A stretch of DNA of 64,000 bases from the NCBI GenBank assembly GCA_041393015.1, contig JAWKKV010000013.1, positions 3,255-67,254 of the forward strand, given 5' to 3'. Below the pieces are notes generated by a model, which was not told the origin of the DNA, ran no database searches, and was given only the letters and a program-made list of their open reading frames with translations. The position numbers and the translations under genes are program-made. The DNA comes from Chitinophagales bacterium. Its GTDB lineage: Bacteria > Bacteroidota > Bacteroidia > Chitinophagales > JADIYW01. This document shows positions 42,552 to 64,000 of this stretch, piece after piece; within the stretch, counting starts at the first letter, position 1; each line of letters begins with the position of its first letter.

Positions 42552-42572
42552 GCTTACTAAAAATAGAATCTA

Positions 42573-43019: not shown

Positions 43020-43038
43020 AAATTTGCGTAGCAAATTT
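43020..43038. terminator. palindrome AAATTTGC-GTA-GCAAATTT between convergent genes
   Basis: 8-bp perfect arms around a GTA triloop. Nearly the same sequence occurs at 37183-37203. Confidence 0.45.
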
Positions 43039-43075
43039 CACTCGAAACTCTACATTTGAAACTTGAAACTCAGAA

Positions 43076-43849: not shown

Positions 43850-43914
43850 GTTAATCTGATTTTGGCGGAAGATAGCGAAACTTTCTACTAAGAGAAAAAA
43901 AATGACTTAAAAAT

Positions 43915-44886: not shown

Positions 44887-44995
44887 GACACAGTTTCTTA
44901 TCAGGATTAAGACGCATATTAGATATAATTACATAAAAGAAATAGAATACAGCAGAAAATCTATGGTAGGATGTCTAGCATCTTAGATCTATAAC

Positions 44996-45730: not shown

Positions 45731-45962
45731 TAAAGAAATGGTTTAAGATTACACTTCGAATGCTTGAAAATAAGTAAATATTTTTAATTACTTGTAAACG
45801 GTGAGATGAATTGAATTTCAATACCTTAGACAAAGATGAAGGTTAAACCTTTTGTAAAAGGTGAATAGAAAAAAAATGGACACAAATTCCACAAATTCTC
45901 ACTTATATTAATGTTGATTTACTCTGCTTACTTTTTTTGAGTTTAGAATTTTACCGATTAAA

Positions 45963-45981
45963 TTGCCGCTTTTGGCGGCAA
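45963..45981 (-). terminator. GC-rich hairpin downstream of the helicase gene
   Basis: Stem TTGCCGC / GCGGCAA with a 5-nt loop, about 150 nt past the minus-strand stop at 46130. TTTAAT follows it on the minus strand. Confidence 0.4.
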
Positions 45982-46129
45982 AATCCATGTAATTATTTTT
46001 AAACCAATATAAACACTGAAACAAAAGGAATTAACAATTTTAGATTGTAAATAAATGCGGAGGAATAACGTGATTTATAATACAAATTTGCGAAATCCGT
46101 GTCAAAAAAAATATTAACACACCTAATTG

Positions 46130-47869
46130 TTACTCTAAAAATGCAACCCCTAATCTGATGTCGTCCCAACTTAATTTTCCTTTAAAGTGATCAAAAAGTG
46201 GTTTGATTTTTATATCGCCTTTTTCGGAAAAATAAAATTCTTTCATGTCAACCGATAGCTTTTCGTGAGCTTTGAGTAGTTTCTTCATTATAGAAGCATC
46301 GGGTCTAAATCGCTCTATATCAGTATTGGGAAAGTCCTTGTTAATACGGGCAAGATGTCCAGCAATAGTGCCTATGGTTAATCCTCTCGCTTCTGCAATA
46401 GCTTCCAAATCTAAGCCTTGCTCAATCAAAATTTTGGTTTGCTCATAAGTACTTACTTTCTTTTCCTTTGCAGTCTTGCCTTTACTTTTTTTTTGAAGTT
46501 TGGCTTCATTTAATTTGATAGCGGCTTGATTAATTGTACCGCCTGCTCTTAAAATGAATTTACTGTATTCATCCTCTAACTCTGCGATACTATATTTTAA
46601 ATCAGCTTCATTACTCAATTCTTGAAATCGAAGATCTGCTTTTAAGGCAAGCGGGTCAACTTCTAAGGCAATATCATTGAAGTCTGTAAGTTTTAAACCA
46701 TCCATGTCTTTTAGCCTCGATAAGGCCACATATCCTTGTCCTCTTTCAAAAGTTTTGCCTAAATCAATTTCTGCTGCATCTAAGGTCATTCCTTGACTTT
46801 TATGCACCGTTATCGCCCAGCCCAAACGCAATGGTAATTGGGTTAAACTAACCAATGAAGTGCCTTTCTCATTATCAATCGACCACTTTTCGGCATATAC
46901 GTGTATAATATCACCTTGAATCGTTTTTACAACGGGCACAATCTTATTTTCACCATCAATATCTTCTTCCTTAAAATCGATTACTTTACCAATCGTTCCA
47001 TTCATAAATCCGGCTTCGTAATTGTTTTTAACAAACATCACTTTGGCCCCTAATTTCAATGTAAGTACTTCTGGTGCTAAGACAGACTTCACCAACATAT
47101 CAGCCATTTTTTCATTGCCTTTTGTTTCGGCTTTAAATTCAAACGGATCACCTTCTAAAGAGGCTAGAAATTCTTCATTCACTTGATCAACATCAAAATT
47201 ATGACTGAATAATCGGGTAGGAGCGTTATCGTTTAAAATGGTATGTTTTGCTTCATATAATATAGACAAACTGTTTTTACTTACGCTGCCGGATCTTATC
47301 TCATTTAAAATTTGATTGAGATCATTTTCTGTTTGCCTAAATTGTTCAGTTAAATAACAAACGGTAAAGTTGGCTTGCACCCAAGCCGGCGCCATAAAAG
47401 CAAACTTATCTCTATTACTTTCTTCAGTTTTTGAAACAGGAGGAAGTTGGAAAAAATCTCCTGATAAAATCACCTGTATACCGCCAAATGGTTCGTAATT
47501 GCCTTTAAAATGCTGTAAAACTTTATTGACCATTTCTAACTGACGCTTATGCAGCATAGAAATTTCATCTAAAATCAATACTTCAACAGTTGTCAACTTT
47601 TTAAAAAGATATTGCTTGTCCATCAATTTTTTAAGATCAGAAGAAGATAAGCTATCTTTTATGCCGATACCAGCCCATGAGTGGATGGTTTGACCATTCA
47701 TGTGCGTAGCGGCAATACCTGTAGAAGCAGTAATGGCAACCGGTACTTTTCTCGCTTTTAAATAATCGATATATTGGTTTAAAACATAGGTTTTTCCAGC
47801 GCCGGCAGAACCGGTTAGAAATACATTTTTACCAGATTTTAGTATTGAAAGTGCTTTTTCTTGCTTCAT
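46130..47869 (-). CDS. PIF1/RecD-like P-loop helicase with a C-terminal helix-turn-helix region
   Basis: 579 aa. Walker A GSAGAGKTY, TASTGIAATHMNGQTIHSW, LILDEISM and TVHKSQG. Confidence 0.8.
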   Translation of the reverse strand: MKQEKALSILKSGKNVFLTGSAGAGKTYVLNQYIDYLKARKVPVAITASTGIAATHMNGQTIHSWAGIGIKDSLSSSDLKKLMDKQYLFKKLTTVEVLILDEISMLHKRQLEMVNKVLQHFKGNYEPFGGIQVILSGDFFQLPPVSKTEESNRDKFAFMAPAWVQANFTVCYLTEQFRQTENDLNQILNEIRSGSVSKNSLSILYEAKHTILNDNAPTRLFSHNFDVDQVNEEFLASLEGDPFEFKAETKGNEKMADMLVKSVLAPEVLTLKLGAKVMFVKNNYEAGFMNGTIGKVIDFKEEDIDGENKIVPVVKTIQGDIIHVYAEKWSIDNEKGTSLVSLTQLPLRLGWAITVHKSQGMTLDAAEIDLGKTFERGQGYVALSRLKDMDGLKLTDFNDIALEVDPLALKADLRFQELSNEADLKYSIAELEDEYSKFILRAGGTINQAAIKLNEAKLQKKSKGKTAKEKKVSTYEQTKILIEQGLDLEAIAEARGLTIGTIAGHLARINKDFPNTDIERFRPDASIMKKLLKAHEKLSVDMKEFYFSEKGDIKIKPLFDHFKGKLSWDDIRLGVAFLE

Positions 47870-48177
47870 TTATCAAACTCAAAATTAGTAGAATAACTTA
47901 TTTATAGAGTATTAAAAACATCAAATTCCATAATAACTCGAAAAAAATAAAAATTCTAATGTGCATTTAAGATGTAATTTTTTTTTAATTAGGAAAAGTG
48001 ATACGGACGCTATAGCTATGTTTTAGAATAGTAAAATTATTAGTGATAGAAGCTTTACTTTGTTGCATAACAATCAGCATTTATAACATATATTAAAACT
48101 GTAAAATATGTTAATGAAATAACCACTTTGAAGCCTTATTTTCGTGGTGTTCAATTTTTAACCACACTGAATTTGTT

Positions 48178-51100
48178 ATGAAAAAACTTATATTATTATC
48201 AACGATGGTGTTGATTCAAATGACCATCTATGCTCAAAAAACTTACGTTTATTTTCAAAATAGCACCTCTTTAGATTTTAGTGTTTCTAGCACACAAACC
48301 GGCACACATACTATGGAATCAAGCGAGTGGTGGTCAAGCACTACTACCATTAATGCTTGGCAAAATGAAACCAATGTTCTTTGGACCAACAGAGATGCAG
48401 GTATTCATTGGGGAGATGATTTTTATTTAACAACCACATTAACCAGTGGATCAACCTCTATCGATCTAAAATTAAAATTACAGGGTGATTTTATTGGTAG
48501 TACCATTTGGTGTGCTGCTGCAGGGCCGGGTTTTAGTCATGGATGGTCGAGTGATAATAATTTTCATTCTCAAATATTTTCTATTAGTGGAAAGCAATAT
48601 GAGATCAAATATACATTCTATTTTACCGGTGGATATGATGATATTTTATATACAATTCATGAATTTGATGCCTTTTCAGCTAATGCAGCAGAATTAAATG
48701 ATCCAAATATTATGAATGTTTTAGCGTATAATACGTATATGTTATCCGTTCCCATTGCTTTGTCAGATCAAGGTACAAGAGCGCAACACATTGATGAGGC
48801 GGTACATGATTTGGATGCCATTTTAATTCAAGAAGTATTTGATAATAGTGCAAGAGCAACTTTGTTAGCTCAATTGGCTCCTGAATATCCTTATCAAACA
48901 GATGTGGTTGATTTACCAAATATATATGAGGATGGAGGTGTAATGATTGTAAGTCGCTGGCCAATTGAATATACAGCACAAATGGTGTTTAATAATTGTT
49001 TAGATGCTGATTGTCTTTCTAACAAAGGGGTGATGTATGCTCGAATTAATAAATTGGGAAAGAAATACCATTTATTCAGTACACACCAGAATGCTCAACA
49101 AGTCGCTGGTGATGCCGCTTTTGTAAATGTGCGGAATCTACAAATGCAGCAATTCAATGCTTTTATTGATGCTCAAAATATTCCTGTTGATGAAGCAGTG
49201 ATATTTGGAGGGGATATGAACGTTGATAAACATGCAAATTTTCTGAATGAGTACAATAATATGTTTACCATTTTTAATGCTACAGAACCCACTTACATTG
49301 GTCACCCTAATACTTGGGATAAGTATGCCAATCATTATGTAGATTTAGGAAGTGTTGCACCTGAATATTTAGATTATGTATTAGCGGATAATGATTATTT
49401 AGTCCCTGATGAACAAAGCAATAGTGTTTGGGTTTTAAGATCTAATCATGACGATATGTGGAATATACATGATCTTTCTGATCATTTTGGCGTATTGGGT
49501 AGATTTGTTTATACCTATCCAGTGAATGCTTGTGATACCACTACTATTAGTATAGCTTCAAATGTTTCAGACGAAACGGCACCAAATGCAAATGATGGCA
49601 GTATTGATATAACAGTTAGTGGCGGAACTGCAGCATATTCCTATAGTTGGTCAAATGGTAGCACAACGGAAGATATTAGTGGATTAGCCCCCGGGAATTA
49701 TAGTGTTACCGTAACGGATGCGAATGGTTGTATTGAAAACACTTCAGTAAATGTAGCTGCCGGAGTTGATCCATGTGCGACAACAACTATTTCGATTTCT
49801 AGTACGACTATTGATGAAAGTGGTGTTGGGGCAAATGATGGAAGTATTGATATTACTGTAAGTGGTGGAGCGGCGGCTTATTCATATAATTGGTCGAATG
49901 GAAGCACCACAGAAGATATTTCGGGATTAACTGCTGGTGTATATGATGTAACCGTTACTGATGCGAATGGCTGCCTTGAAACAGCTTCGGTAACCATCTC
50001 TACAGTTCCAAGTTGTAATCCTGCTACAACTAATTTTTCTTCAAGCACTTTAACACATAGTGGAAATGGTTCATCATCCGTTACTGCAAGTTTCGATGCA
50101 GGAAGTCAAGATGTTTCTTTTAATATCTTGGAAATAGATCAAAAATTAGGTGGAAAAACCAATAGGAGATATATTGAATTAGTAACCGTTACCTATGTTG
50201 ATGGAGCTGGTAACACACAAACTTATGGCAGTTTTAGCGGAGCAAACATGGCAACTGCTAATGTTTCAATAGCTGGAGTTGTTCAATCTATATCAATTCA
50301 ATTGGAAGATGTTTATAGTGGTAATACCAATTCTACAATGACAATTTCTTTATCAAGTATAGATTATTGTGGTGCACCAGCTTGTGCTGATGCAGATAAC
50401 GATGGAGTTTGTGATATAGATGATGTTTGTCCCGGATTTGATGATACACTTATAGGAACAGCTTGTAATGATGGTGATGATTGCACAGAAAATGATGTGT
50501 ACACTTCAAATTGTAATTGTGTAGGAACTTATACAGACTCAGATAGTGATGGTGTTTGTGATGCCAATGATGTTTGCCCTGGCGGAGATGATCTTGTTGA
50601 TGCAAATAACAACGGTATTCCTGATTTTTGTGATAGTGGAAACTGTACAACTGTAACCAATCCTTTCAACAATAATCCATTAACACACTCTGGTAATGGA
50701 TCAAATTCAACTACACTTAATCTCCCTAATGGTAGTATCGATGTGGAATTTATAGTTAGCAATATTGGCGCAGTATTAAGTGGAAAAGGGAATAAGCGTT
50801 ACATTGAAAGTGTTACAATAACGTATGTTGATGGAGGCGGTAATACACAACCTTACGGAACATTTGAGAATGCCGGAACAGTTAATGTGACTATTGCTGG
50901 AGCAGTTCAATCTGTTACGGTTTCATTATCAGATGCTTATGATGGAAATTCATCACAATTGATGAGTGTTAATTTGAGCGATGTAACTTCTTGTAGCACG
51001 CCTTCAAGCAGAGTAGCTAAAGTTGATGCTTTAGAGAAAGAAATCTCTATATACCCTAATCCGGCATCAAGTACACTATTTATTAAATATAGCCATGTAG

Positions 51101-51279
51101 AAGAAGGTATTGCTATAGTAAATATTTACGCTTTAAATGGACAACAGGTTTATAGTAAGTCAATTGATCTTCAAGAAAATATGCAAATCGATGTTTCAGA
51201 TTTAGAAGGAGGCATTTATGTTATTCAGATTACAAATGAAAATGGAGATATGCAGGCGCTTAAGTTTGTCAAACAATAA
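48178..51279 (+). CDS. T9SS-secreted multidomain protein with a sphingomyelinase C-like EEP domain
   Basis: 1033 aa with a signal peptide. EEP motifs: VLAYNTYML, ILIQEVFD, GGDMNVD, LSDHFGV. Two SprB-type repeats (NANDGSIDITVSGG..YSWSNGSTTEDISGL..Y.VTVTDANGC). Asp-rich DxDxDGVCDxxDVCPG repeats. C-terminal sorting-domain signature (IYPNPASSTLFI..GIYVIQI). Confidence 0.8.
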   Translation: MKKLILLSTMVLIQMTIYAQKTYVYFQNSTSLDFSVSSTQTGTHTMESSEWWSSTTTINAWQNETNVLWTNRDAGIHWGDDFYLTTTLTSGSTSIDLKLKLQGDFIGSTIWCAAAGPGFSHGWSSDNNFHSQIFSISGKQYEIKYTFYFTGGYDDILYTIHEFDAFSANAAELNDPNIMNVLAYNTYMLSVPIALSDQGTRAQHIDEAVHDLDAILIQEVFDNSARATLLAQLAPEYPYQTDVVDLPNIYEDGGVMIVSRWPIEYTAQMVFNNCLDADCLSNKGVMYARINKLGKKYHLFSTHQNAQQVAGDAAFVNVRNLQMQQFNAFIDAQNIPVDEAVIFGGDMNVDKHANFLNEYNNMFTIFNATEPTYIGHPNTWDKYANHYVDLGSVAPEYLDYVLADNDYLVPDEQSNSVWVLRSNHDDMWNIHDLSDHFGVLGRFVYTYPVNACDTTTISIASNVSDETAPNANDGSIDITVSGGTAAYSYSWSNGSTTEDISGLAPGNYSVTVTDANGCIENTSVNVAAGVDPCATTTISISSTTIDESGVGANDGSIDITVSGGAAAYSYNWSNGSTTEDISGLTAGVYDVTVTDANGCLETASVTISTVPSCNPATTNFSSSTLTHSGNGSSSVTASFDAGSQDVSFNILEIDQKLGGKTNRRYIELVTVTYVDGAGNTQTYGSFSGANMATANVSIAGVVQSISIQLEDVYSGNTNSTMTISLSSIDYCGAPACADADNDGVCDIDDVCPGFDDTLIGTACNDGDDCTENDVYTSNCNCVGTYTDSDSDGVCDANDVCPGGDDLVDANNNGIPDFCDSGNCTTVTNPFNNNPLTHSGNGSNSTTLNLPNGSIDVEFIVSNIGAVLSGKGNKRYIESVTITYVDGGGNTQPYGTFENAGTVNVTIAGAVQSVTVSLSDAYDGNSSQLMSVNLSDVTSCSTPSSRVAKVDALEKEISIYPNPASSTLFIKYSHVEEGIAIVNIYALNGQQVYSKSIDLQENMQIDVSDLEGGIYVIQITNENGDMQALKFVKQ

Positions 51280-51314
51280 CAGTAAGGAGCTTAAACGAAG
51301 CAGCACTTAAATTT

Positions 51315-51351
51315 AAAATCCCATTCTAGACTAAATCTAGAATGGGATTTT
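51315..51351. terminator. strong bidirectional intrinsic terminator
   Basis: 16-bp perfect stem AAAATCCCATTCTAGA / TCTAGAATGGGATTTT with a 5-nt loop, between convergent genes. Confidence 0.85.
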
Positions 51352-51374
51352 TCTTTATAATATGAGTTGTCACT

Positions 51375-52007
51375 TTATAACTGCCCAGTCCATAATCCCA
51401 ATAAAACTTGTAAACAGCCAATAAAAAATCCTAAAACGGCTCCAATCAATTCTATAAATTTGAACTCTCTTGATGTAATAGTTAAAATCAATTGTTCTAA
51501 TTTATCATCAGAAAAATTATTAATCTTCTTTTCAACCATATCCAAGATGTCAATTTTTTCCTCTAATTTATCGACGTATTTATCAATTAGTTTTGGTAGG
51601 GTAGACTCAACATCATTGGTAACCGATTTATGAATCCGTTGAATAAAACCTTCAGGGATAACTACTTGTTGGAATTTTGTTTTGTGAAGTCGTTCCCTGA
51701 TCATGGTTTCAACATGAATAGAAACTTGTTCTGCCATTTGATGCATAGATTCCGGATCTTCCAATTTCTTTTTAATATCATCAAAAGAAAGAAGATCGCG
51801 TTGCACCACATTACCTAAATTTTTGGCCAACTTATGCTTGTTTTTAGGAAATATACCATGCAAGGTAAAAAGTCCAAAATTAATGGGTTTTTTAGGTCTG
51901 AATAATAACTTTATAGCAAGGTAATTGGTTACCCAACCGATTATTAATCCTACTACAGGAGGAAGAACCCATTGCAACCATGAAAGTGATACTGATGCTA
52001 AAATCAA
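51375..52007 (-). CDS. DUF445-family membrane protein
   Basis: 210 aa. N-terminal GWVTNYLAIKLLFRP motif typical of DUF445. Confidence 0.6.
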   Translation of the reverse strand: MILASVSLSWLQWVLPPVVGLIIGWVTNYLAIKLLFRPKKPINFGLFTLHGIFPKNKHKLAKNLGNVVQRDLLSFDDIKKKLEDPESMHQMAEQVSIHVETMIRERLHKTKFQQVVIPEGFIQRIHKSVTNDVESTLPKLIDKYVDKLEEKIDILDMVEKKINNFSDDKLEQLILTITSREFKFIELIGAVLGFFIGCLQVLLGLWTGQL

Positions 52008-52071
52008 ACTGTTATTTTTAATTAATCAATACATATCTAACTAAGAAGCAGATACAATTAGTTCACCTTAA

Positions 52072-52710
52072 TTAGGTGCGGCCCCAATTTGCAGGGTCTT
52101 GACGCCACAAATTTAATACATCTTCATGTTCCGGTAAGATATATCCGTTTTTTATCGCAACGCTAATAAGCGTTTTATAATTTGATAAAGTGAAAAATGG
52201 CACTTTACTTTTTTCAAAGTTATCATTAGCGGTTTGAAAACCATACGTAAAAAGTGCAATTAGGCCCACTACTTCGGTATTGGTTTCTCTTCTAATGGCA
52301 TCTACCGCTTGCAAACTGCTTTTCCCTGAAGAAATAAGATCTTCTATCATTACCACTCTTTGTCCATCTTCTACATGTCCTTCCACACTTTTTTGCATAC
52401 CATGTCCTTTCGGAGCACTTCTTACATATATAAATGGTTTTTGAAGTTGATCAGCTACTAATGCACCAACAGCAATACCTCCGGTCGCTACACCGGCAAT
52501 TACGTCAACCTCTTTAAACTTTTCTTCTAACGTGCTTGTTAAACTATCTCGAACAAAATTTCGTATATCAGGATAGGATAAAATTTGCCTATTATCACAG
52601 TAAACAGGCGATAACCAGCCGGAAGCCCATGTAAAAGGTTTTTGTACGCTAAGTTGAATTGCTTTTATTTGTAGTAAATATTTCGCTAGTTGTTCTGATA
52701 TTGCATCCAT
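52072..52710 (-). CDS. pyrE: orotate phosphoribosyltransferase
   Basis: PRPP-binding VVMIEDLISSGKSS. The start is trimmed to the ATG at 52710 (MDAISEQLAKYLL). The 60-codon track extension overlaps the divergent NUDIX gene. Confidence 0.85.
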   Translation of the reverse strand: MDAISEQLAKYLLQIKAIQLSVQKPFTWASGWLSPVYCDNRQILSYPDIRNFVRDSLTSTLEEKFKEVDVIAGVATGGIAVGALVADQLQKPFIYVRSAPKGHGMQKSVEGHVEDGQRVVMIEDLISSGKSSLQAVDAIRRETNTEVVGLIALFTYGFQTANDNFEKSKVPFFTLSNYKTLISVAIKNGYILPEHEDVLNLWRQDPANWGRT

Positions 52711-52723
52711 AAGTTTAAAAACT

Positions 52724-53377
52724 ATGATCCAAAAGTATAAAATTTTCATCAATGATAAATTGCTCTTTTTAGTTGATAATCCGGCTAAAGTGGAAGAAAT
52801 CCTTACATCAAAGGATCCATATATTATTAAGACGTACAAAAAGATGAAAGATTTGAAGGACTTAGTAGATGTCTTAATGAGTGATATCAACCAAAGTAGT
52901 ATGGTTATCTATCATGCTGATGTAGAAAAGTTGAAAACTGATCTTTTTTCACTGTTTGAATACATAGAGGCAGCCGGTGGAGTAGTTCAAAATGATGAAG
53001 GTAAAATACTCTTAATTTTTAGAAAAGACTTTTGGGATTTACCCAAAGGTAAAATAGAAAAAGGAGAGTCGATAGAGCAAGCGGCGGTTCGAGAAGTGAA
53101 GGAAGAAACGGGCGTTAAAAGGTTACAATTAAAAGAACCGGTACGGTTTGAAGGACTTTCTAATACCTGTACTTATCATACTTATATTCATAAAGGAAAG
53201 TCAGTAATGAAAGCATCTTATTGGTTTAAAATGTCAACCGATTATGCCGGCAGATTGGTGCCTCAACAAGAAGAAGATATTGAAGAGGTAAAATGGGTGC
53301 ATCCATCAGAAATAAAGGAATATACCAGTAACATGTATGCATCCATTAGAGATGTTATTATTAACACGAATAGTTAA
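52724..53377 (+). CDS. NUDIX hydrolase
   Basis: 217 aa. Nudix box GKIEKGESIEQAAVREVKEETGV. Confidence 0.8.
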   Translation: MIQKYKIFINDKLLFLVDNPAKVEEILTSKDPYIIKTYKKMKDLKDLVDVLMSDINQSSMVIYHADVEKLKTDLFSLFEYIEAAGGVVQNDEGKILLIFRKDFWDLPKGKIEKGESIEQAAVREVKEETGVKRLQLKEPVRFEGLSNTCTYHTYIHKGKSVMKASYWFKMSTDYAGRLVPQQEEDIEEVKWVHPSEIKEYTSNMYASIRDVIINTNS

Positions 53378-53664
53378 ATATTAACATATTTTAATAATTG
53401 TAATTCTTGCCTTTTATTCACCGAAGTTAAGAGTGAAATTCCCCAAGTTTTTTAAATATTAGTGAGTACCTAGATTTATTGTTTAGTTTTTAGATGATTG
53501 TTTAGTCTGTTTTGATGATTATAATAGATTCAAATTAGTAGTTGAATTATTTGTAATATCACCCATTAGTATGATAATCAAAATTATCTCTTAACATATT
53601 TTTACACTTCCGAATAGTTGGATGATAAAAACCCTCAAATTTTATTATCGACCAAAGTGAAAGT

Positions 53665-56600
53665 TTGAAGGAGAGAATTAATTTTTATGCATTTGCTTTT
53701 AAAAGTTTGAAACGGGGGATTTTCATTCTTTTATCAGTGCTTTTAGTTTTGGGATTAAACACCGTTAAAGCTCAAAGCTGCCAAGAGATTTATGTATCAC
53801 CATCTGGTTTTGGTCCAGGAACATCAAGTTCTCCAGCTTCCTTAACACTCGCATTAGCTACTGCCAATCCTGGTGATGTCATCAAACTCGCTATAGGAAC
53901 TTATAACATCAACGCTACTTTACCTTTAATAAGTGACGTTACATTAGAGGGTGGATTTATACCAGCAGCAGGATGGAGAAAAACAAGTTTAGCAGGAGCC
54001 ACCACCATTAATAGAACCACTGCAAGTCCCGACGGTGCTGCAAATGCGCAGCGTTTAATAGCCTTGAATGCTATTGGATTATCAGGTTTTAGATTACAAG
54101 ATTTAACCATTACTACCGCAAATGCTAATCAACCGGGTATGTCTACTTACGGCATATATCTTTCCAACTGTTCTAATTATTCAATTGTAAGATGCCAAAT
54201 TTTCCCGGGTAATCCTGCCAATGGTCTTGATGGAACAGATGGCTCTGTTGGAGGCAATGGAAGCAATGGAGGCAACGGGGTTAATGGCGTAGATAACTCT
54301 GATTTAGCAACAGTTAGAGGTGGAGTTGGAGGTTTCGGCTGTGGAGGTGCCTCTGGTGCATCACAATGTGTTAATACTCCTCAAAGTGTTGGATGTAACG
54401 GTTTTACGGGTTCAACAGCTACCTTATTTTCTAGAGGTGGCGGAGGCGGAAATGGTGGCGGTGGCGGACATGAAGATAGAAATGGTGGAAGAGGTGGTTA
54501 TGGTGGTGGAGTAGTTGCCGGTGGCGGATTTAGTGCAATAGGATTTAATACTACTCAGGGCACTGGCTTCGGTTGTCGTCCATCAGGTAATTGGTTCGGA
54601 AATGAAAGCGGTTGTAATAGTGGTAACGTAAATTCAAACTCAAGTGAATCTGGCATGTGTGGCAGAAATGGAAATAACGGAGCACCCGGAGCTACTGGGG
54701 CATTAGGACCATTAGGCACACATGTAGGCGGATACTTTCTTCCTGGTGGACCGGGCGCTACAGGTTCAACCGGTCAAGGTGGCCAAGGAGGTTCCGGTGG
54801 TGGTGGTGGAGCCGGAGAAGGTGGCTTTACTTGTACTGATGGTACGGGTGCTGGCGGCGGCGGTGGTGGCGGCGGCGGCTGCGGTGGCACTGGCGGTACT
54901 GGCGGTCGTGGCGGAGGAGGTTCTTTCGGGTTGTATGGTGTAAATAGTAGTTCAGGTACAATAATTCAATGTAATATAGTTGCTGGACCACCAGCTTTTG
55001 GTGGTACTGGTGGTACTGGTGGTTCTGGTGGTATGGGTGGAAATGGTGGAAATGGTGGCAGTAGTGGTGGTGATGTTGGTTTTGGCGGTGATGGTGGTGA
55101 TGGCGGTAACGGGGGCAATGGGGGCAATGGTGGCAATGGAAGAATTGGAACTTCTTTAAGTGTCTATGGAAGTCTACCTGCTTATTCTTCTTTTAACTTA
55201 GCAGGACAGCCAACCATTCAAGTAGATTTAAATTGTGCAAATGCTAATGTTACATATACATCAGCCGCAAGTGGTTTTTGGGATTTTGATGTTTTTAGTA
55301 ATAATGCAACGCCTGCTACAGCATCCGGGACTTCAATTACAACGGTATATGCCGATACCGGTAGATATAGTGTTTCACTTGGGGGCAATACTTATGAGGG
55401 CTTCACCAACATTTGCTGCCGACTTACTTATATTGTATATCCACAGGCTATTGAAGCTTGCGATTCCACACTCATAAATGGACAATGGTACTCAGAAACA
55501 CAAATAGTAAGAGATACATTCACAGCTAGTCAAGATTCTATTGTAATTACCGATTTAACCATTACAGAAGATTGTTCTGTCAATTCTTATTGTGAATTTC
55601 AAAAAGTAGTCGCTTCAGATGCTGCAGCTAGTGATCAATATGGCGAAGCGCTAGCTGTTTTTGGAAATAGAGCGGTCGTAAGTGCTCGCTATAACGACGT
55701 TGGAGCTTCCAATGCAGGCGTTGTTTATGTGTTAGAATACAACGGCACCAGTTGGGTAGAAACAGCTATTTTAGGGCCGTCAAGCCCCGAAGTCAATAAC
55801 TATTTTGGAATTAGTGTAGATATTACAGAAGACAGAATAATTGTAGGTGCATTGTGGGAAGATGATACACCCGGTCAAGATGAAGGAGGCGCATATATTT
55901 TTGATTATGATGGCAGTAATTGGAATGAAACAACCATTTTAAGAGCCAATACACCTGGTAATCTTGATCTTTTTGGAATTAGTGTTGCTTTATCCGGTGA
56001 TGCAGCTATTGTAGGGGCTCATTATGACGATGATCTTGGTAGTAATAGCGGAAGTGCACAAATTTTTGAATATGATGGAAACACTTGGCAATCTACGCCA
56101 ACTATTTTGGCACCAGATGGAGGCGCTTTTAATGAATTTGGAACGTCAGTTGATATTTCAGGATCTTTTGCCATAATTGGTGCCGCCAAACACAATCATA
56201 CAGGGAATCCTGGTGGAGCAGCCTATATCTATGAAAGATCTGGTGGCAGTTGGAGTTTAATTCAGGAGATAAGACCACCTGATTTAGCGGGATCTGATTA
56301 TTTTGGAAAAAGTGTTAGCATCTCTAGTGATAGAGCTATTATTGGCGCTCCATTAGTGGATGATAATGGAACCAATAGTGGAGCAGCTTATATTTATTTT
56401 TATAATGGATCTTCTTGGATAGCAGGTCAAAAAATAACAGCTTCTGATCCTGCATTAAGTGATGAGTTTGGCGATGATGTTAGTATTTCAGGAAATTATG
56501 CAGTGGTAGGGGCATATAAAAAGGCTGATCTCGGATTTCAAACAGGCGCTGCCTATATGTTTCGTTGGAATGGAAGTGTCTGGCAAGAAATAAATAAATT

Positions 56601-57051
56601 ACTTTCTTCAGATATTGCTGCTGGAGATCAATTTGGATTTGCAGTTGCTATTTCAGGAAACAATATGTTAATTGGTAGCAAAGCAAATGATGATGATGGC
56701 TCGGCTTCTGGTTCAGTATATTTCTTTGAAGCTTCTCCCGATGATATCTACTCACCACAAGCCATCGACGCTTGTGACTCTATTCAAATTAATGGGAATT
56801 GGTATTCAGAAACGCAAATTGTTAGTGATACAATATCAATTGGGACTTGCCAAGATTCTATTATCATTACAGATTTAACCATTGGCGACTGTGGAATATC
56901 AGATTTTTGTGAATACCAAAAGGTAAATGCTTCTGATCCTGTGGCCAATCAAAATTTTGGAATTGTTTCTGATATTAATGGTGATGTAGCAATTATTGGA
57001 GCAAAAGGTGATAATAATAGTGGCTCTTCAAGTGGGTCTGCTTATATATAG
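53665..57051 (+). CDS. giant surface protein, segment 1: signal peptide, beta-helix-like N-domain, Gly-rich region, FG-GAP-like propeller 1 and the start of propeller 2
   Basis: 1128-aa ORF in frame 1 with a TTG start and signal peptide ..ILLSVLLVLGLNTVKAQ. Seven blades per propeller carry the x[FY]G..V.I.G....VGA..DD..G..SG.AY.F.Y.G..W motif. It ends at a TAG inside a (TA)4 run. Confidence 0.75.
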   Translation: MKERINFYAFAFKSLKRGIFILLSVLLVLGLNTVKAQSCQEIYVSPSGFGPGTSSSPASLTLALATANPGDVIKLAIGTYNINATLPLISDVTLEGGFIPAAGWRKTSLAGATTINRTTASPDGAANAQRLIALNAIGLSGFRLQDLTITTANANQPGMSTYGIYLSNCSNYSIVRCQIFPGNPANGLDGTDGSVGGNGSNGGNGVNGVDNSDLATVRGGVGGFGCGGASGASQCVNTPQSVGCNGFTGSTATLFSRGGGGGNGGGGGHEDRNGGRGGYGGGVVAGGGFSAIGFNTTQGTGFGCRPSGNWFGNESGCNSGNVNSNSSESGMCGRNGNNGAPGATGALGPLGTHVGGYFLPGGPGATGSTGQGGQGGSGGGGGAGEGGFTCTDGTGAGGGGGGGGGCGGTGGTGGRGGGGSFGLYGVNSSSGTIIQCNIVAGPPAFGGTGGTGGSGGMGGNGGNGGSSGGDVGFGGDGGDGGNGGNGGNGGNGRIGTSLSVYGSLPAYSSFNLAGQPTIQVDLNCANANVTYTSAASGFWDFDVFSNNATPATASGTSITTVYADTGRYSVSLGGNTYEGFTNICCRLTYIVYPQAIEACDSTLINGQWYSETQIVRDTFTASQDSIVITDLTITEDCSVNSYCEFQKVVASDAAASDQYGEALAVFGNRAVVSARYNDVGASNAGVVYVLEYNGTSWVETAILGPSSPEVNNYFGISVDITEDRIIVGALWEDDTPGQDEGGAYIFDYDGSNWNETTILRANTPGNLDLFGISVALSGDAAIVGAHYDDDLGSNSGSAQIFEYDGNTWQSTPTILAPDGGAFNEFGTSVDISGSFAIIGAAKHNHTGNPGGAAYIYERSGGSWSLIQEIRPPDLAGSDYFGKSVSISSDRAIIGAPLVDDNGTNSGAAYIYFYNGSSWIAGQKITASDPALSDEFGDDVSISGNYAVVGAYKKADLGFQTGAAYMFRWNGSVWQEINKLLSSDIAAGDQFGFAVAISGNNMLIGSKANDDDGSASGSVYFFEASPDDIYSPQAIDACDSIQINGNWYSETQIVSDTISIGTCQDSIIITDLTIGDCGISDFCEYQKVNASDPVANQNFGIVSDINGDVAIIGAKGDNNSGSSSGSAYI
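54220..55140 (+). other. glycine-rich low-complexity coding region forming a local GC island
   Basis: GGNGSNGGNG.., GGGGGNGGGGG and GGTGGTGGSGGMGGNGGNGG runs. The DNA is dominated by GGN codons (for example 54840-54925). Confidence 0.9.
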
Positions 57052-59914
57052 ATACAATGGTGTCAATTGGGTGGCTGAACAAAAATTGATTGCTTCAGAT
57101 GGAGCATCAGGAGATGCATTCGGCAGTGCTGTGGCTATTTCCGGCAATTGGGCCATTGTTGGTGCAATCTTCGATGACGATATTGTAAATTCGAGTGGTT
57201 CCGCTTATCTATATTTTTATAATGGTAGCACTTGGACCGAATTTCAAAAGATTACCGCCTCTAATCCGGGCTTCAATAACAAATTTGGATTTTCTGTTTC
57301 AATTTCTGGAAATTTTGCAGTGGTAGGAGCTAATACTGCCGGTGGACCATTCTTATCTACTGGTGGGGCGGCATATGTATTTCAGTATAATGGTAGCATT
57401 TGGGAGCAGATTCAAATTGTACAACCTGCAGATATTCAAACATTAGATAATTTTGGATTTAGCGTTGATATAGTTGGCGATAAATTTGTTGTTGGCTCAA
57501 ATGTTGACGACGATAATGGAAATGCGAGTGGATCAGCATACGTTTATAAATATAATGGTTCAATTTTTATTCAAGAACAAAAACTAACTGCAATAGATGG
57601 AGCTGCAAACGATCAATATGGTGTAAGTGTGGCCATAGGTAAAGATATTATTGTTGTTGGCGCAAATTTAGATGATAGTCCTGCTACAGATGCGGGATCT
57701 ATTTATATATATGATTTTAATGGATCTAGTTGGGTTCATAATTTAAAAATTGCTGCAACCGATCAAAATTCATCCGATAATTTGGGCACCACAGTATCCA
57801 TTTCAAATAAACGTATTATTGCTGGAAGTGGTTATGATGATGCTCCTCTGCCAAATAGTGGTTCAATTTATATTTACAATTTTGATGGTTCTACTTGGGA
57901 AGAAGGTATCAAAGTAACTGCTTCTGATGCTAATTCAAATGACTTTTATGGAAATTCTGCATCGATATCTGGAGAATGGATTGTGACAGGTGCAGCTTTT
58001 AATGATGACTTTGCTTCCAGCACTGGTTCTGCATATTTCATTAAAGCTGCTCCAGCAGATATCTACAGCCCTCAGGCAATTGATGCCTGCGATTCTGTTC
58101 AAATCAATGGAATCTGGTATTCAGAATCGCAAATCGTTAGAGATACTTTTGCTATTGATGCTTGTCAGGATTCAATTGTGGTCACAGAACTCAACCTCTC
58201 AAGTAATTGTGAGGTAACAGAACTATGTGAAATACAAAGAATATTTGCTTCTGATCCGGGGGTAAATGATGATTATGGAGATGCTATTTCAATCTATGGT
58301 GATTTAGCTATCGTTGGGGTACAATTAAACGATGATGGTGGAACGAGTAGCGGTTCTGCTTATATTTTAAGAAAAAGTGGCGGTGTTTGGACACAAGAAA
58401 CAAAGTTAGTGGCATTTGATGATGCCGCTGATGATAGATTCGGCATAGATGTAGCCATAGCTGAAAATATAGCCATTGTAGGCGCTCCCTTAGATGATGA
58501 TGATGGGGCAAATAGCGGTTCCGTATATATTTATAAATACAATGGAAGCACTTGGAATTTAGATATAAAATTGGTGGCATTTGATGCAACTGCTGGAGAT
58601 CAATTTGGTATAAGTGTTGATTTATCAGGGAATACTTTAGTAGTGGGGGCGAGTAGTGATGATGATGGCGCTTCTAATAATGGATCTGTTTATATCTATA
58701 ATTACGACGGTACCAATTGGAATTTTACTCAAAAAGTAGATCCTACCATTAACATTGTAAATGGATATTTTGGAAGTTCCATTGATTTGTCAGGCGATAG
58801 AATGATTGTTGGTGCCACATGGCCATTGTCTATAGGAGCAGCGCATATCTTCGATTTTAATGGCACGTCATGGGTGGAAACGCAAAGACTATTGGCGTCC
58901 GATGGTGGAACGGCTGACAATTTTGGTGGTACGGTATCTCTTTCGGGTAATTTTGCTGTAATTGGAGCTAGTTCAGATGATGATTTAGGAACTAATTCAG
59001 GTTCCGCATATGTTTTTGAATTCAATGGCAGTAGCTGGTCTCAAATCAATAAATTTCTTCCTACCGACCCTCCAAATAGCATTGATCTTTTTGGCAGCTC
59101 TGTCACCATTGAAGCTAATAAAATGTTGATTGGATGCCCCGGGGAGGATGGTCCAAATTCAGGTGCTGTTTATTTTTATCAATATGATGGTTCTACATGG
59201 AGTTTTACTGAAAAAATATTGGCTGTCGCAACATCTGGAAATTTAGGCTCAGCTGTAGACATATCGGGCGATAACTTTATGTTAGGTGCTTCTGAGACAC
59301 CAACTGGTGGAGCAGTGTTTTTCTATGAAGCTTGCTTACCTGATGTTGTTATATATGAAGATCGTGCAGCTTGCGACTCTGTTCAAATTGGTGGAACATG
59401 GTATGCTGAAAATGCACTTGTCTATGATACAATTAGTGGAAGCTTAACGGATTCTATTTATATCATCAACTTAGAAATTGAAGATTGCAACGCTTCTGTT
59501 TTTTGCACATTTAATCAAGTACTCTCAAACGATGATGATGCAGTGGATTATTTTGGTGTTTCTTTTGCCGTTTTTGAGAATACCGCCGTTGTTGGTGCAA
59601 GATTAGACGATGAGAATGGAGCAAATGCCGGTGCCGCTTATGTCTTCAATTATGATGGAACCAATTGGGTTCAAGCGCAAAAAATATTGCCGGGTGATGT
59701 TATTGCCGGAGATTTATTTGGATCTGATGTGGCTATTTACAATGATGTTATGGCCATTAGCCAAATTGGTAGTTTAAATGATGTAGCTGATTTTAGATCG
59801 GTATATATCTATCGATACAATGGTTCATCTTGGGTACAAGAACAAAAGATTGCACCCTATGGAAACAGTGCAGACTATTTTGGAAGGAATTGGAAGTTTA
59901 TGGAGATTATCTGA
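56996..59914 (+). CDS. giant surface protein, segment 2 (frame 2): rest of propeller 2, propeller 3 and the start of propeller 4
   Basis: 972-aa ORF. Repeat homology resumes at about 57044 (IYRYNGVNWVAEQKL), continuing the blade broken at 57051. It has no signal peptide of its own. Confidence 0.6.
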   Translation: MEQKVIIIVALQVGLLIYRYNGVNWVAEQKLIASDGASGDAFGSAVAISGNWAIVGAIFDDDIVNSSGSAYLYFYNGSTWTEFQKITASNPGFNNKFGFSVSISGNFAVVGANTAGGPFLSTGGAAYVFQYNGSIWEQIQIVQPADIQTLDNFGFSVDIVGDKFVVGSNVDDDNGNASGSAYVYKYNGSIFIQEQKLTAIDGAANDQYGVSVAIGKDIIVVGANLDDSPATDAGSIYIYDFNGSSWVHNLKIAATDQNSSDNLGTTVSISNKRIIAGSGYDDAPLPNSGSIYIYNFDGSTWEEGIKVTASDANSNDFYGNSASISGEWIVTGAAFNDDFASSTGSAYFIKAAPADIYSPQAIDACDSVQINGIWYSESQIVRDTFAIDACQDSIVVTELNLSSNCEVTELCEIQRIFASDPGVNDDYGDAISIYGDLAIVGVQLNDDGGTSSGSAYILRKSGGVWTQETKLVAFDDAADDRFGIDVAIAENIAIVGAPLDDDDGANSGSVYIYKYNGSTWNLDIKLVAFDATAGDQFGISVDLSGNTLVVGASSDDDGASNNGSVYIYNYDGTNWNFTQKVDPTINIVNGYFGSSIDLSGDRMIVGATWPLSIGAAHIFDFNGTSWVETQRLLASDGGTADNFGGTVSLSGNFAVIGASSDDDLGTNSGSAYVFEFNGSSWSQINKFLPTDPPNSIDLFGSSVTIEANKMLIGCPGEDGPNSGAVYFYQYDGSTWSFTEKILAVATSGNLGSAVDISGDNFMLGASETPTGGAVFFYEACLPDVVIYEDRAACDSVQIGGTWYAENALVYDTISGSLTDSIYIINLEIEDCNASVFCTFNQVLSNDDDAVDYFGVSFAVFENTAVVGARLDDENGANAGAAYVFNYDGTNWVQAQKILPGDVIAGDLFGSDVAIYNDVMAISQIGSLNDVADFRSVYIYRYNGSSWVQEQKIAPYGNSADYFGRNWKFMEII

Positions 59915-60436
59915 TGGTATCATTATAAGGATGAATTTGGCGCTGGCATTGATGAACATTATGTCAATGTATATCATTTTGATGGCAGTACTTGGTCATT
60001 ATTCAAACCTTACAACCCACTGATGTTAGGACCCGGCGATCCATTTGGATTTGCCATATCTATGTCGGAAACCACTGCCTTTATTGGCTGTTATACCTGT
60101 GATGGAAATGTAGGTGCTGCTTATGTGTATGACTTTAATGGCACTACTTGGAGCCTATCTCAAAAATTAACCGATGGGGCGGCAGTTTCAGGTGACTGGT
60201 TCGGGAATTCCGTTGATATATTTGGCGATCGAGCGATTATAGGATCATTACAATGATGAAATAGGAGGGAAAGTGGCGCAGGTTCAGCTTATATATATAC
60301 CTATAATGGATCATCATGGGTGGCACAACAGAAATTAACAGCACCTAATCCTACAGCTGGATACAGGTTTGGAAGTGCTGTGGATATATCCGGTGATTAT
60401 GCAGTGATGGGGAAAGCAACGAAAGTTCCATTATAG
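59915..60436 (+). pseudogene. degenerate stretch of propeller 4 with three in-frame stops and local frame slips
   Basis: Frame 2 has TGA at 59912-59914 and TGA TGA at 60254-60259. The blade consensus is recovered only by reading 59884-59922 in frame 1 (KELEVYGDYLMVS) and 60243-60270 in frame 0 (DHYNDEIGG). Frame 2 ends at the TAG at 60434-60436. Confidence 0.55.
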
Positions 60437-63400
60437 CCAACAATGGAGCGGCGTATGTTTTTAAATACAATGGCAGTGCTTTCGTAGAGTTGGATAAATT
60501 AATGGCATTTGATGCGGAAACTTTTGACTTTTTTGGCTATGATGTGGATATAGCAGGAGAACATATTTTGGTAAGTGCCATCAATGGTGGACCAAATGGA
60601 TCAGGAGCGCTGTATCATACTATTGCTCAAGCTACTAACTATACTTATGACACTACTTTTGTAGCCTCATGCGATTCAGCTTTTATTAGAGGGCAGTGGT
60701 ATGATTCAGCACAAACCATTATTGATACTTTATATGGAGGTGATATTAATTGTGAGGATTCTATTTACGTAATCAATTTCAGTATCCTTGAAAATATTAT
60801 TAATTCACAAGCAATCGACGCTTGCGATTCTGCTTTAGTGAATGGTAATTGGTATTTCGAAACTCAGATCGTAATTGACACTTTTGAAGCTGCCAATGGT
60901 TGCAGTGATTCAATTGTAACAAGAGATATTACAATTGCTAATTGCACTATTGATGACTATTGTATTAAAGAAAAAATCTTAGCTAGTGATGCTGCTTTGG
61001 GAGATGAGTTTGGGGAGTTTGTTGATATTTTTGGAGATTGGGCAATTGCGGGAGCTTATAAGAATGATGATGCAGGTACCAGTAGTGGAGCTGCATATCT
61101 GCTTAGAAGATCTGGAGGAAACTGGGTTGAAACTCAAAAAATAACAGCATCGGATGCCGCTGCCAATGACTGGTTTGGAAATGATGTTGCTATTAATGGG
61201 AATTATGCTGTAGTAGGAGCACCAGGTGATGATGATTTGGGAAGTAGTTCTGGCTCCATTTATATATTTGAATACAATGGGGTATCATGGGTGCAATCAC
61301 AAAAAATTACGCAGCCTAGCGGTTCAAACAAGTTCTTTGGTATTGCTGTTGATATTTCAGGAACACATTTAGCAGTTGGTGCTTGGGGAGTTGATGATAA
61401 TGGCACTGACAACGGTGCTGCCTATATCTATGCATTTGATGGTACTTCATGGGTATTGAAACAAGAATTATCGGTTACGGTATTGCCAGGACAAACCTCA
61501 CAGGCTTTTGGTAACCATATAGCCATTGAAGGAAATAAAGTGCTTGTAGGTGCCTTTGGTGATATTCAGAATGGAACTTATTCAGGAGCCGCGTATGTTT
61601 TTAAATATGATGGATTGACGTGGATAGAGGAACAAAAGCTTGTCGCATCTGATGGAGCTGCCTTTTACGGCTTTGGCAGAGGTTTGGATTTGACTGAGGA
61701 TTATGCTGTTATTTCCAGTAGGTCTGATGCAACAGCGGGGAATTCAGCCGGTTCAGCATATGTTTTTTATTTTAATGGAACAGCCTGGGTGCAACAGCAA
61801 AAATTGTTACCTACAGAATTAGAAACCTTTGATGTTTTTGGTTCAGGGGTAGCCATTTCAAATGACTATATAACCGTAAATGCGCCTGGAGATGATGATG
61901 CAGGATCTAATGTCGGAGCCAATTATATTTATAAAAGAAGTGGAAGTACTTGGAGCAAAATAAACAAAATTCTTCCAATTCCAGTTACTGGAACTAGTTT
62001 TGGAACTGCTGTGGCGATGTCTGGTAACTCAATCATACTTGGAACGGTTAATGATAATGAGTTATTCAATTCTAATGGAGCTGTATATTTTTTAGAACCT
62101 TCATTGGATCCAATTGTTGATTCTGTAGTGGTAATCGCTTGTGATTCAGCTATAATAAATGGAAATACCTATTCTAGTTCACAAATTATAGTGGATACAA
62201 TTGCTTTTGAATTATGTCAAGATTCTATTATTGTAACTGACCTTATCATTTATAACTCTTATACTATTTTAGATACTGTTGTGGCCTGTGATTCGGCATT
62301 AGTGAATGGTAATTACTATTCTTCCACGCAAATGGTTTATGACACTTTTTCCACTGCAAGTCTTTGTGATTCAGTTATCATCACTGATGTAACCATCAAT
62401 AATGCCTTTGAAGTGTATGATACCATAGTTTCTTGTGATTCAGTGTTGATTAATGGCACTTATTATAATAGTAGCCAAACCGTTTATGATACTTTATTAT
62501 CTGCTACCAATTGCGATTCAATTGTCATAACCACTTTAACCATCCTACAAAATATTATCACTCCACAAGCCATTGATGCGTGTGATTCTACTTTGATCAA
62601 TGGTAATTGGTACTTTACAACTCAAATTATCTATGATACATTTTCATTGGTTGGATGTAACGATTCTATTGTTATAACAGACCTTGATGTAGCTGATTGT
62701 GAGATTCAAGACTATTGTGAAACGGATTACCTAACAGCATCAGGAGGTCCAAATGGTGATAGATATGGAAAATCAATAGCCATTTCTGGTGAATGGGCTA
62801 TTTCGGGAACATTATTAGACGATGATCAAGGAACGGATGCAGGTGCAGCTTATATTCTGCGTAAAGTGGGGAATGTTTGGACAGAGTTTCAAAAACTGAC
62901 CGCTTCAGATGGGCTGGCCAATGATCAATTTGGAGAACAGGTTTCACTATCCGGAAACGTGGCAATAATTTCAGCAGACGGGCGCGATGATAATGGAAGT
63001 TTTAGCGGTGCAGCATATGTTTTCCGTTTTAATGGAGTTAATTGGGTACAAGAGCAAAAACTATTAGCTTTTGACGGTATTGCTAACGACGGTTTTGGTA
63101 GTGATGTTTCTGTTTCTGGCGAATTTCTAGCAGTAGGGTCTTTTGGAGATGATGATCTTGGTAGCGGAAGTGGATCGGTCTATATTTATCAATACAATGG
63201 AAGTTTATGGAGTTTAAATCAGAAAGTCACTTCTTCTGACGGTGCCGCATTTGATCAGTTTGGATTTCGACTTGACATTTCGGGCGATAGATTAATTGTT
63301 GCTGCTAATGGTGATGACGACAATGGATCTAGTTCTGGATCTGCTTATATATTTGATTATAACGGTATCACTTGGAGTCAAACAGCTAAACTTATAGCAT

Positions 63401-64000
63401 CCGATGGTGAGGCAAATGATTTCTTTGGAGATGATGTGGCTTTATCTAATGATCGTGCAGTTGTCGGAGCTCGTCGAGAGGATGGGGCTGGAACAAACAA
63501 CGGAAGTGCTTACGTTTATATGTATAATGGAACAAATTGGAGTGAAGAACAAAAGATCATAGCATCTGATGCAGCTGCAAATGACGAATTTGGAACTTCA
63601 GTTGCTATAGCGGGACAGTATATCGTAGCCTCAAGTCCTAATGATAATTCTAATGGAGCTACAAGTGGTTCTGCCTACATTTATAAATTCGATGGATCTT
63701 CTTGGATCGAACTACAAAAATTAATTTCCTCGAATACTACAGTTAATGACCAATTTGGAAATGCAGTAGCGATTAGTGATAATGATATTGCCATAGGCGC
63801 AGAACTAGATGATCCAAATGGTACTGGCAGTGGTTCCGTTACTTTCTTTGAGCCATCTGATTTAGATATAATTGTAAATGTCAATCAACAAGCTTGTGAT
63901 TCTGCATTAATAAGTGGTGTTTGGTATGTTACTTCTCAAATAGTAAATGATACAGTAGTGGATGCCGGTGCGAATTGTGCAGATTCTATTTATGTAATCG
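60397..64000 (+). CDS. giant surface protein, segment 3 (frame 1), open to the window end: end of propeller 4, linkers, propellers 5 and 6
   Basis: My own translation shows no stop from 60397 to 64000. The first ATG is at 60502. It is not in the ORF track because it runs off the window. It carries the same blade and linker motifs. Confidence 0.7.
62105..62725 (+). repeat. four tandem copies of the ~45-aa two-Cys linker module (coding)
   Basis: The copies start VIACDSAIINGNTY.., VVACDSALVNGNYY.., IVSCDSVLINGTYY.. and AIDACDSTLINGNWY... Each is followed by Q.....DT......C.DSI..T.L.I. Confidence 0.85.

Follow-up and report, generated by a model that had tools for sequence, protein, structure and literature searches.

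Layout of the locus

The end of the window (by which we mean the whole 64,000-nucleotide stretch analysed) holds the first 10.3 kb, that is the 5' part, of a gene for a predicted giant secreted protein from a low-GC member of the Bacteroidota found in wastewater and activated sludge. As listed below, a signal peptide is followed by a conserved head, a Gly-rich region and six propellers with linker modules. No tRNA or Rfam element was found in the window.

53707..53772, + strand: TTG start and Sec-type signal peptide, with the cleavage site between MKRGIFILLSVLLVLGLNTVKA and QS (by sequence reading)
53779..54291, + strand: conserved head domain at the N-terminus, perhaps a beta-helix (aa 25-195)
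54305..55386, + strand: Gly-rich region, 36% Gly (aa 200-560), with GGN repeats and several Cys
55432..55578, + strand: linker module 1 (49 aa), then a C-x5-C junction
55579..56745, + strand: propeller 1 (seven FG-GAP_2 blades)
56746..56892, + strand: linker module 2
56893..58060, + strand: propeller 2, broken after 57042 by the loss of one TA unit
58061..58207, + strand: linker module 3
58208..59344, + strand: propeller 3 (seven blades)
59345..59491, + strand: linker module 4, second Cys replaced
59492..60642, + strand: propeller 4, the most divergent unit, with seven single-base indels creating stops
60643..60942, + strand: two tandem linker modules, the array-first subtype and then the propeller-proximal subtype
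60943..62112, + strand: propeller 5 (seven blades)
62113..62700, + strand: four tandem linker modules; the sister MAG contig ends within them
62701..63867, + strand: propeller 6 (seven blades), the unit used for the structure model
63868..64000, + strand: first part of a further linker array, of the array-first subtype, interrupted by the window end

The signal peptide was called from the sequence by eye, and on that reading it is of the Sec type, in agreement with the signal peptide claimed in the original prediction. An alternative TTG lies at 53665, and the gene call of the sister MAG begins at its equivalent. The original prediction also placed a beta-helix-like domain of about 180 aa at the N-terminus. 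A conserved domain is indeed present there: it shares 50-58% identity with the N-terminal parts of 74 among the best 120 matches, mostly proteins with sorting domains of the type IX secretion system (T9SS), while the beta-helix part of the claim is matched by a weak, sub-threshold similarity to the DUF1565 beta-helix (E 1.2e-3). No sequence relative of the N-terminal region was found in the PDB. The Gly-rich region, likewise foreseen, lifts the local GC to 0.45 and is the only part to which DNA tandem repeats are confined; it is collinear with three T9SS proteins of about 900 aa (P0001-P0003) at ~50-55% identity. Three genes (2.4 kb) upstream, the gene at 48178-51276 encodes a T9SS cargo, with SprB repeats (PF13573) and a Por_Secre_tail; its presence would imply that the host has a T9SS.

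Propellers and linker modules

The propeller repeats match FG-GAP_2 (PF14312) in Pfam with E-values of 1e-105 to 1e-204, and the three open pieces that carry them all score far above the cutoff of 23 bits, at 346 bits (8 stretches), 596 bits (14 stretches) and 663 bits (15 stretches). Each intact unit contains seven FG blades at a spacing of ~55 aa. When HMMs built for this analysis were run on the repaired protein (described below), 42 blades and 11 linker modules were counted, so that the anticipated six propellers of seven blades were recovered together with the consensus strings proposed for blade and linker. The unit period had been put at about 375 aa and was measured as 428-439 aa, of which the propeller alone takes ~385 aa.

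Structure prediction supports closed, seven-bladed, integrin-alpha-like propellers. The AlphaFold2 (AF2) model of the propeller 6 unit, which had been suggested as a check, reached a pLDDT of 90.9 and a pTM of 0.87; over the propeller itself (residues 51-435) the pLDDT was ~98, and the predicted chain forms a closed ring of 28 strands (7 x 4), in which the N-terminal strand completes blade 7 by giving its last strand. The best Foldseek matches of this model in the PDB were integrin alpha propellers (E 1.5e-17, TM 0.62-0.64). All 50 matches listed were integrin headpieces or ectodomains (probability 1.00, TM 0.59-0.65, 12-16% identity). The sequence profile gave 12 matches, all of them integrin alpha chains, with integrin alpha-M at E 1.9e-6. 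The integrin calcium loop D.[DN].[DN]G..D was matched 0 times across 3432 aa, and the loop between strands 1 and 2 is just 2-3 residues long.

The linker module is an all-beta stretch of 49 aa with the consensus A-C-D-S..ING.WY...Q...DT.....C.DSI..TDL.I. In front of every propeller stand 1-4 copies and a C-x5-C junction, and the copy number runs 1, 1, 1, 1, 2, 4 and then at least 1 along the chain. The equal spacing of linkers in the original prediction was thus not borne out, as two tandem copies stand before propeller 5 and four before propeller 6. Its two-Cys linker was correct as to a Cys-containing module but not as to the number, since the six propeller-proximal copies hold 3-4 Cys each including the extra C-x5-C (four Cys in 4/6); the second module Cys is missing from linkers 1 and 4. 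In the longer relative L003 the array-first subtype is followed by more linkers every time. Two AF2 attempts on the linker gave low-confidence models (pLDDT 52-67), and Foldseek returned no match to its fold at E<=1e-3. Because of this, linker stiffness and disulfides are guesses. Weak Rib and Ig array matches to the linker fold were not counted as evidence.

No Pfam or NCBIfam model matches the linker module. A word-indexed search with the linker alignment gave 0 matches; in an exhaustive search, a profile built from the 11 window copies matched 5806 cluster representatives when the limit was set at E<=1e-3 and 2300 when it was set at E<=1e-10, and as many as 71 stretches occurred in one protein. 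Seven of eight sampled members carry a T9SS sorting domain, either PF18962 (type A, TIGR04183) or PF13585 (type B, TIGR04131). Judged by sequence, the linker is therefore a widespread, uncurated, stand-alone repeat family, found mostly in T9SS cargo, and the description of it as dedicated to this architecture had to be given up in view of the 5806 representatives in other proteins. As a module in thousands of clusters that still lacks a Pfam or NCBIfam model, it would improve the annotation of Bacteroidota secretomes once such a model was made.

Reading frame and proposed export

The original prediction spoke of a single gene longer than 10 kb. The window itself holds no single ORF of that length: it is open over 53629-57048, 56990-59911, 59915-60253 and 60397-63999, segments which lie in two frames and are separated by eight breaks at 57042, 59886, 59922, 60003, 60026, 60250, 60267 and 60407. 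At all eight sites an in-frame version is present in contigs of independent metagenomes from wastewater; at 57042, for example, the tract 57035-57044 is (TA)4 in the window and (TA)5 in most metagenomes. When these in-frame indel versions were applied, the gene became one 3432-aa ORF with 0 stops. The frame is still open at the last position of the window (64000), as had been stated. Among the population substitutions in the repaired frame, 44/67 fall at codon position 3 and 42 are synonymous, so that purifying selection is seen to act on the single long frame in the natural population. In the 16.5 kb of flank, the only indel differences from the contigs are 4, all intergenic, and no indel difference was seen in 60900-64000.

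Hence, the eight breaks are most likely assembly consensus errors in a strain-variable stretch rather than biology. With moderate confidence, we regard the locus as the 5' part of one gene, broken by such errors, whose predicted product is exported by the T9SS and binds multivalently at the cell surface. The protein would be exported by Sec and then cross the outer membrane through the T9SS, by way of a C-terminal sorting domain beyond the window that is expected by analogy with relatives, and would be retained on the cell surface. There the linker arrays would serve as spacers that hold the propellers apart, probably stiffened by disulfides, and the propellers would be putative ligand-binding units; if so, binding would be multivalent, as in adhesion and floc formation or polymer capture. 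By analogy with relatives its identity as T9SS cargo, already proposed from the sequence, is plausible: head homologues carry PF18962 or PF13585, and proteins sharing the head, the linker or the whole design end in one of the two.

Decay of the gene in the sequenced strain, with the indels real and the protein lost there but kept by sister strains, is an unlikely alternative that nevertheless deserves weight. Run X2 carries the (TA)4 frameshift allele, so the 57042 break, at least, may be real; the gene is also in pieces in the sister MAG (L004), and the indel sites lack long homopolymers. However, the L004 breaks lie at other places than those of the window, and seven of the eight indels fall within 520 nt of the 10.3-kb gene. 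In that stretch propeller 4 shows 0 substitutions and 7 single-base indels against its closest contigs (X1-X3), while in real decay substitutions far outnumber indels, and the window's version at these seven sites was found in none of the compared metagenome contigs. The reading frames of long repetitive genes in MAGs need checking against independent reads.

Certain beta-propellers are enzymes, and the L003 relative combines its propellers with Laminin_G_3 and P_proprotein domains. The propellers might accordingly be catalytic, for example polysaccharide-degrading, and the protein a surface-tethered multi-enzyme. We hold this to be improbable, because the propeller sequence matched no enzyme family in the Pfam and NCBIfam searches, the closest folds are ligand-binding propellers of integrin alpha, and no conserved active-site candidates stand out in the blades apart from their structural consensus.

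The TA tract at 57035-57044 could also act as a slipped-strand switch (phase variation), silencing all that lies beyond propeller 1. Both (TA)4 and (TA)5 occur naturally on otherwise identical sequence (X2 vs X6 and X8). However, 4-5 units is short for the repeat of a contingency locus, and the off allele was seen in only 1/5 runs, at depths of 2-5x, where within-sample mixtures are invisible. A switch is therefore very improbable.

The locus might instead comprise several paralogous propeller genes lying side by side, or a chimera mis-assembled from such genes, as the ORF listing, with ORFs of 1128 aa and 972 aa given separately, would suggest. This reading is refuted as far as the data allow, given that the later pieces begin mid-blade and that their translations showed no start context or signal peptide of their own, nor any internal start with a signal peptide, that the repaired frame runs unbroken, that the units are too divergent (only 48-57% DNA identity) for collapse or mis-joining, and that the independent L004 contig is collinear over 11.5 kb with the same unit order up to its end at 62538. 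The beads-on-a-string order first described was thus reproduced by L004 and by metagenome contigs that span the unit junctions and stop at ~63925, with no paralogue mis-join. Propeller 5 is 99.8% identical to P0358 (NCBI MAG GCA_041393055.1), and no mention of the sister assembly was found in the literature.

Strain variation, relatives and known systems

In this gene the strains differ as a mosaic, chiefly in the Gly-rich region and in propellers 1 and 4. These three parts may have been swapped between otherwise near-identical strains. If true, such a pattern would suggest that diversifying selection, for instance by phages or grazers, acts on a multivalent surface receptor. The 49-aa module may be a new domain family, missing from the catalogues, that forms the stalk in thousands of T9SS surface proteins, and the protein may belong to a small, undescribed poly-propeller class with six to >13 integrin-like propellers per chain. 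That all three hold together, a new stalk family, a poly-propeller class and swapped propellers under diversifying selection, is put forward only tentatively.

The architecture had been presented as unusual, but at least three other metagenomic proteins (P0241, P0342 and P0360) share the propeller-plus-linker design. P0241 (L003, ENA ERZ26222911) shows the same alternation with a variable linker copy number, and over a collinear stretch of 2900 aa it shares ~38% identity. It is much longer than the window protein: its propeller positions number at least 13, with Laminin_G_3 occupying one, and after them come short repeats of 37 aa, which extend over more than 3000 aa, and a P_proprotein domain. 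P0342 has the same alternation with a different N-terminus, whereas P0360 has 25 blades, 12 linkers and a C-terminal Por_Secre_tail (T9SS type A). P0334 ends in CHU_C. The best homologues of one unit in a word-indexed search, which listed only proteins <800 aa, are 400-780 aa long and 34-51% identical; as this search missed P0241, it is unusable as an argument for the rarity of the design.

The bacterial integrin-type propellers of Chouhan et al. 2011 (PMC3192720) are single, "sometimes two tandem copies". The window protein resembles these FG-GAP_2 proteins in the closing of seven blades and in an integrin alpha homology detectable by profile and fold, and differs in having at least six propellers per chain and in missing the integrin DxDxDG calcium loops. 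No paper joining FG-GAP with T9SS was found in the literature.

SprB-type surface proteins belong to the giant adhesins and T9SS cargo, rich in repeats, of the Bacteroidota. Like them, the window protein is very long, built from repeats and provided with a signal peptide, and its head and linker are common to proteins with Por_Secre_tail or CHU_C. SprB repeats themselves occur only in the neighbouring gene, and the repeat unit here is a 385-aa propeller instead of a small Ig-like repeat. Six or more propellers per chain would mean that whole propellers, not just Ig-like repeats, can build giant bacterial surface proteins. Given the activated-sludge habitat, floc adhesion is a candidate role for the window protein, of modest practical weight until its ligand is known.

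In eukaryotes, the LDL-receptor YWTD propeller-EGF arrays and the sema-PSI pairs of semaphorins and plexins join propellers and small Cys modules in one chain. The likeness to the window protein, in which propellers are also strung with small Cys-containing modules, is one of analogy and not of homology: the YWTD propellers of the LDL-receptor family are six-bladed and unrelated in sequence, and the EGF and PSI folds are unrelated to the 49-aa module.

Anatomy and predicted structure of the multi-propeller protein

The N-terminus of the giant surface protein is a signal peptide (MKRGIFILLSVLLVLGLNTVKA/QS), as read from the sequence. It is followed by a head domain (aa 25-195), for which 74 of the 120 best matches show a counterpart with 50-58% identity; most of these head-sharing proteins bear T9SS sorting domains. 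The beta-helix character originally predicted for this head received only a DUF1565 beta-helix signal, its sole Pfam signal and below threshold, while the domain itself proved conserved. The Gly-rich region, also foreseen together with the signal peptide, contains 36% Gly and is collinear with P0001-P0003, which are T9SS proteins of about 900 aa. This region is separated from linker 1 by ~75 aa (window 55200-55430, aa about 500-575) containing VTYTSAASGFWDFDVFSNNATP..TTVYADTGRYSVSL, which resemble a degenerate PKD/Ig-like domain but had no Pfam match.

Six units then follow, each a 49-aa Cys-containing linker module and then a seven-bladed FG-GAP_2 propeller. Purpose-built HMMs counted 42 blades (spacing about 55 aa, seven per unit) and 11 linker modules in the repaired protein, reproducing the predicted six propellers of seven blades. 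The units are not equally spaced at ~375 aa as had been thought; they measure 428-439 aa, with 1, 1, 1, 1, 2 and 4 linker copies, then at least one at the cut end. The propeller-adjacent copy leads through a conserved C-x5-C into the propeller-closing strand. Because DNA identity among units is only 48-57%, the duplications are old and unable to cause assembly collapse.

An AF2 model of the linker plus propeller 6 (47 aligned sequences) gave a pLDDT of 90.9 and a pTM of 0.87. The propeller part reached about 98 and was predicted as a closed seven-bladed propeller, as proposed. Its first strand and 27 more make 7 x 4 strands, and the model closes the ring in the classic way, with the N-terminal strand supplied to complete the final blade. 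The integrin-alpha-like reading was borne out as well: the top Foldseek entries in the PDB were integrin headpieces or ectodomains only (E 1.5e-17, TM 0.62-0.64, 13-16% identity), and a profile from the alignment matched integrin alpha-M (E 1.9e-6). A simple sequence search of PDB chains with the propeller gave zero matches, and the integrin calcium loops are absent from the protein sequence. The linker was predicted as a small all-beta module with a pLDDT of only 52-67, and this model had no fold match.

Origin of the frame breaks

The gene had been described as a single frame of more than 10 kb. The ORF listing and a three-frame scan split 53665-64000 into several ORFs, with open segments in two frames.

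Open segments of the gene in the window
53629-57048 (+), frame 0
56990-59911 (+), frame 1
59915-60253 (+), frame 1
60397-63999 (+), frame 0, open at the window end

Translations placed every break mid-blade. The sequence lacks one TA unit at 57042 (SGSAYI-stop vs IYRYNG), short out-of-frame stretches lie near 59886-59922, 60003-60026 and 60250-60267, and another shift occurs at 60407. Outside this gene the window is closely packed with ORFs that are long and intact, reaching 1686 aa. Near-identical sequence was present in wastewater and activated-sludge metagenomes of several studies, and these contigs were aligned to the window to compare bases at the break sites.

Metagenome version relative to the window
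After 57042: TA added (contig sets X1, X4, X6, X8)
After 59886: A added
59922: lost (taken from a loose contig end)
After 60003: C added
60026: one base lost
60250: one base lost
After 60267: T added
After 60407/60408: T or A added

With the eight corrections, one stop-free frame of 3432 aa begins at 53707 and extends to the end of the window. As controls, 40000-56500 showed four indel differences, all intergenic, and 60900-64000 showed zero. Within propeller 4, every difference between the window and its closest contigs is an indel, and substitutions number zero; this is the mark of consensus error and not of divergence. Among 67 population substitutions in the repaired frame, 44 fall at codon position 3 and 42 are synonymous, which indicates that the long frame is under purifying selection. 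X2 was the only contig set agreeing with the window at 57042, where the (TA)4 allele could be a genuine polymorphism. A true pseudogene in the sequenced strain is a less likely reading. From these sequence comparisons we take the gene to be intact in nature, and the window's breaks to be most likely assembly errors within a strain-variable stretch.

The sister MAG contig L004 (GCA_041393055.1, JAWKKX010000031.1) is collinear with window 51034-62538, and its differences are strongly clustered.

Mismatches of the sister contig with the window
Further upstream of 52500: up to 7 per 500 nt
52500-54000: at most 3 per 500 nt
54000-56000 (Gly-rich region, propeller 1): about 5-10%, many indels
56500-57000: about 3%
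57000-59500 (most of propeller 2, propeller 3): at most 3 per 500 nt
59500-61000 (propeller 4): about 13%, many indels
Propeller 5: at most 3 per 500 nt

Metagenome contigs contained additional haplotypes in the strain-divergent stretches. The sister copy is likewise split into many ORFs at sites other than the window's; hence both MAGs are problematic precisely where strains differ. Such clustering between two genomes that are otherwise near-identical suggests recombination or diversifying selection inside the gene.

Two local observations were also made. One contig of X1 passes directly from 60467 to 60826 and so omits 358 nt, its shorter side measuring only 23 nt; either a variant or slippage in assembly between similar linker copies may account for this. 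At 54326-54876, contig depth climbs to 24-45x and loose ends are numerous; the Gly codon repeats there, being rich in GGC, draw unrelated metagenome contigs, so read-based checks are unreliable.

The linker family and its propeller-bearing relatives

A profile of 11 window linkers, scored against 1.84 billion representatives, matched 5806 proteins at E<=1e-3 (2300 at E<=1e-10). Hence the linker, called dedicated in the original prediction, is not exclusive to this protein. No model for it exists in Pfam or NCBIfam. Family proteins carry up to 71 copies and reach 6676 aa; since seven of the eight members sampled end in Por_Secre_tail or CHU_C, the linker appears to be a general T9SS-cargo spacer or stalk repeat. 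FG-GAP_2 blades also occur in 6 of the 150 best linker proteins.

Linker proteins with FG-GAP_2 blades
P0241: 4460 aa (partial); 48 blades and 28 linkers; collinear with the present protein at about 38% identity
P0342: 2211 aa; four propellers, one linker before each
P0360: 3442 aa; 25 blades and 12 linkers, ending in Por_Secre_tail
P0334: a single propeller with 16 linkers; CHU_C
P0358 and P0299: the remaining two

P0358 matches window residues 2450-2945 at 99.8% identity and is encoded on the sister contig. The P0241 locus (ENA ERZ26222911 ctg1007717, 1-29229) represents a much larger relative. It comprises 13 or more propeller positions, with a Laminin_G_3 domain in place of the propeller at one of them; beyond these come over 3000 aa of the repeat in a shortened 37-aa version, plus a P_proprotein domain. 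This low-coverage contig is frameshift-fragmented, and it includes a 5665-aa ORF of about 37-aa short CDS..GCDS repeats with P_proprotein.

Neighbouring genes and proposed role

Other genes of the window
23853-31291 (-): Omp85/POTRA (793 aa) adjoining TamB (1686 aa), a TAM-like outer-membrane assembly pair
48178-51279 (+): 1033-aa T9SS cargo three genes upstream with Exo_endo_phos, SprB repeats and Por_Secre_tail, a probable secreted nuclease or phosphatase
52072-52890 (-): 272-aa TTG-started phosphoribosyltransferase ORF
52724-53377 (+): NUDIX ORF overlapped by the former

As the sister MAG calls the phosphoribosyltransferase at 212 aa, the additional 5' length of the window's ORF is probably spurious.

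The multi-propeller protein would be exported by Sec, then transported by T9SS via a putative sorting domain beyond the window, and then attached to the surface. There, linker arrays may serve as spacers and propellers as multiple putative binding sites. Its constituent parts, the FG-GAP_2 propeller and the giant repetitive T9SS cargo, are of known kinds. Neither the poly-propeller arrangement nor the spacer family is described as yet, and the literature gave no paper connecting FG-GAP with T9SS. While Chouhan et al. 2011 (PMC3192720) noted two tandem copies at most for the bacterial integrin-type propellers they described, the present protein has at least six.
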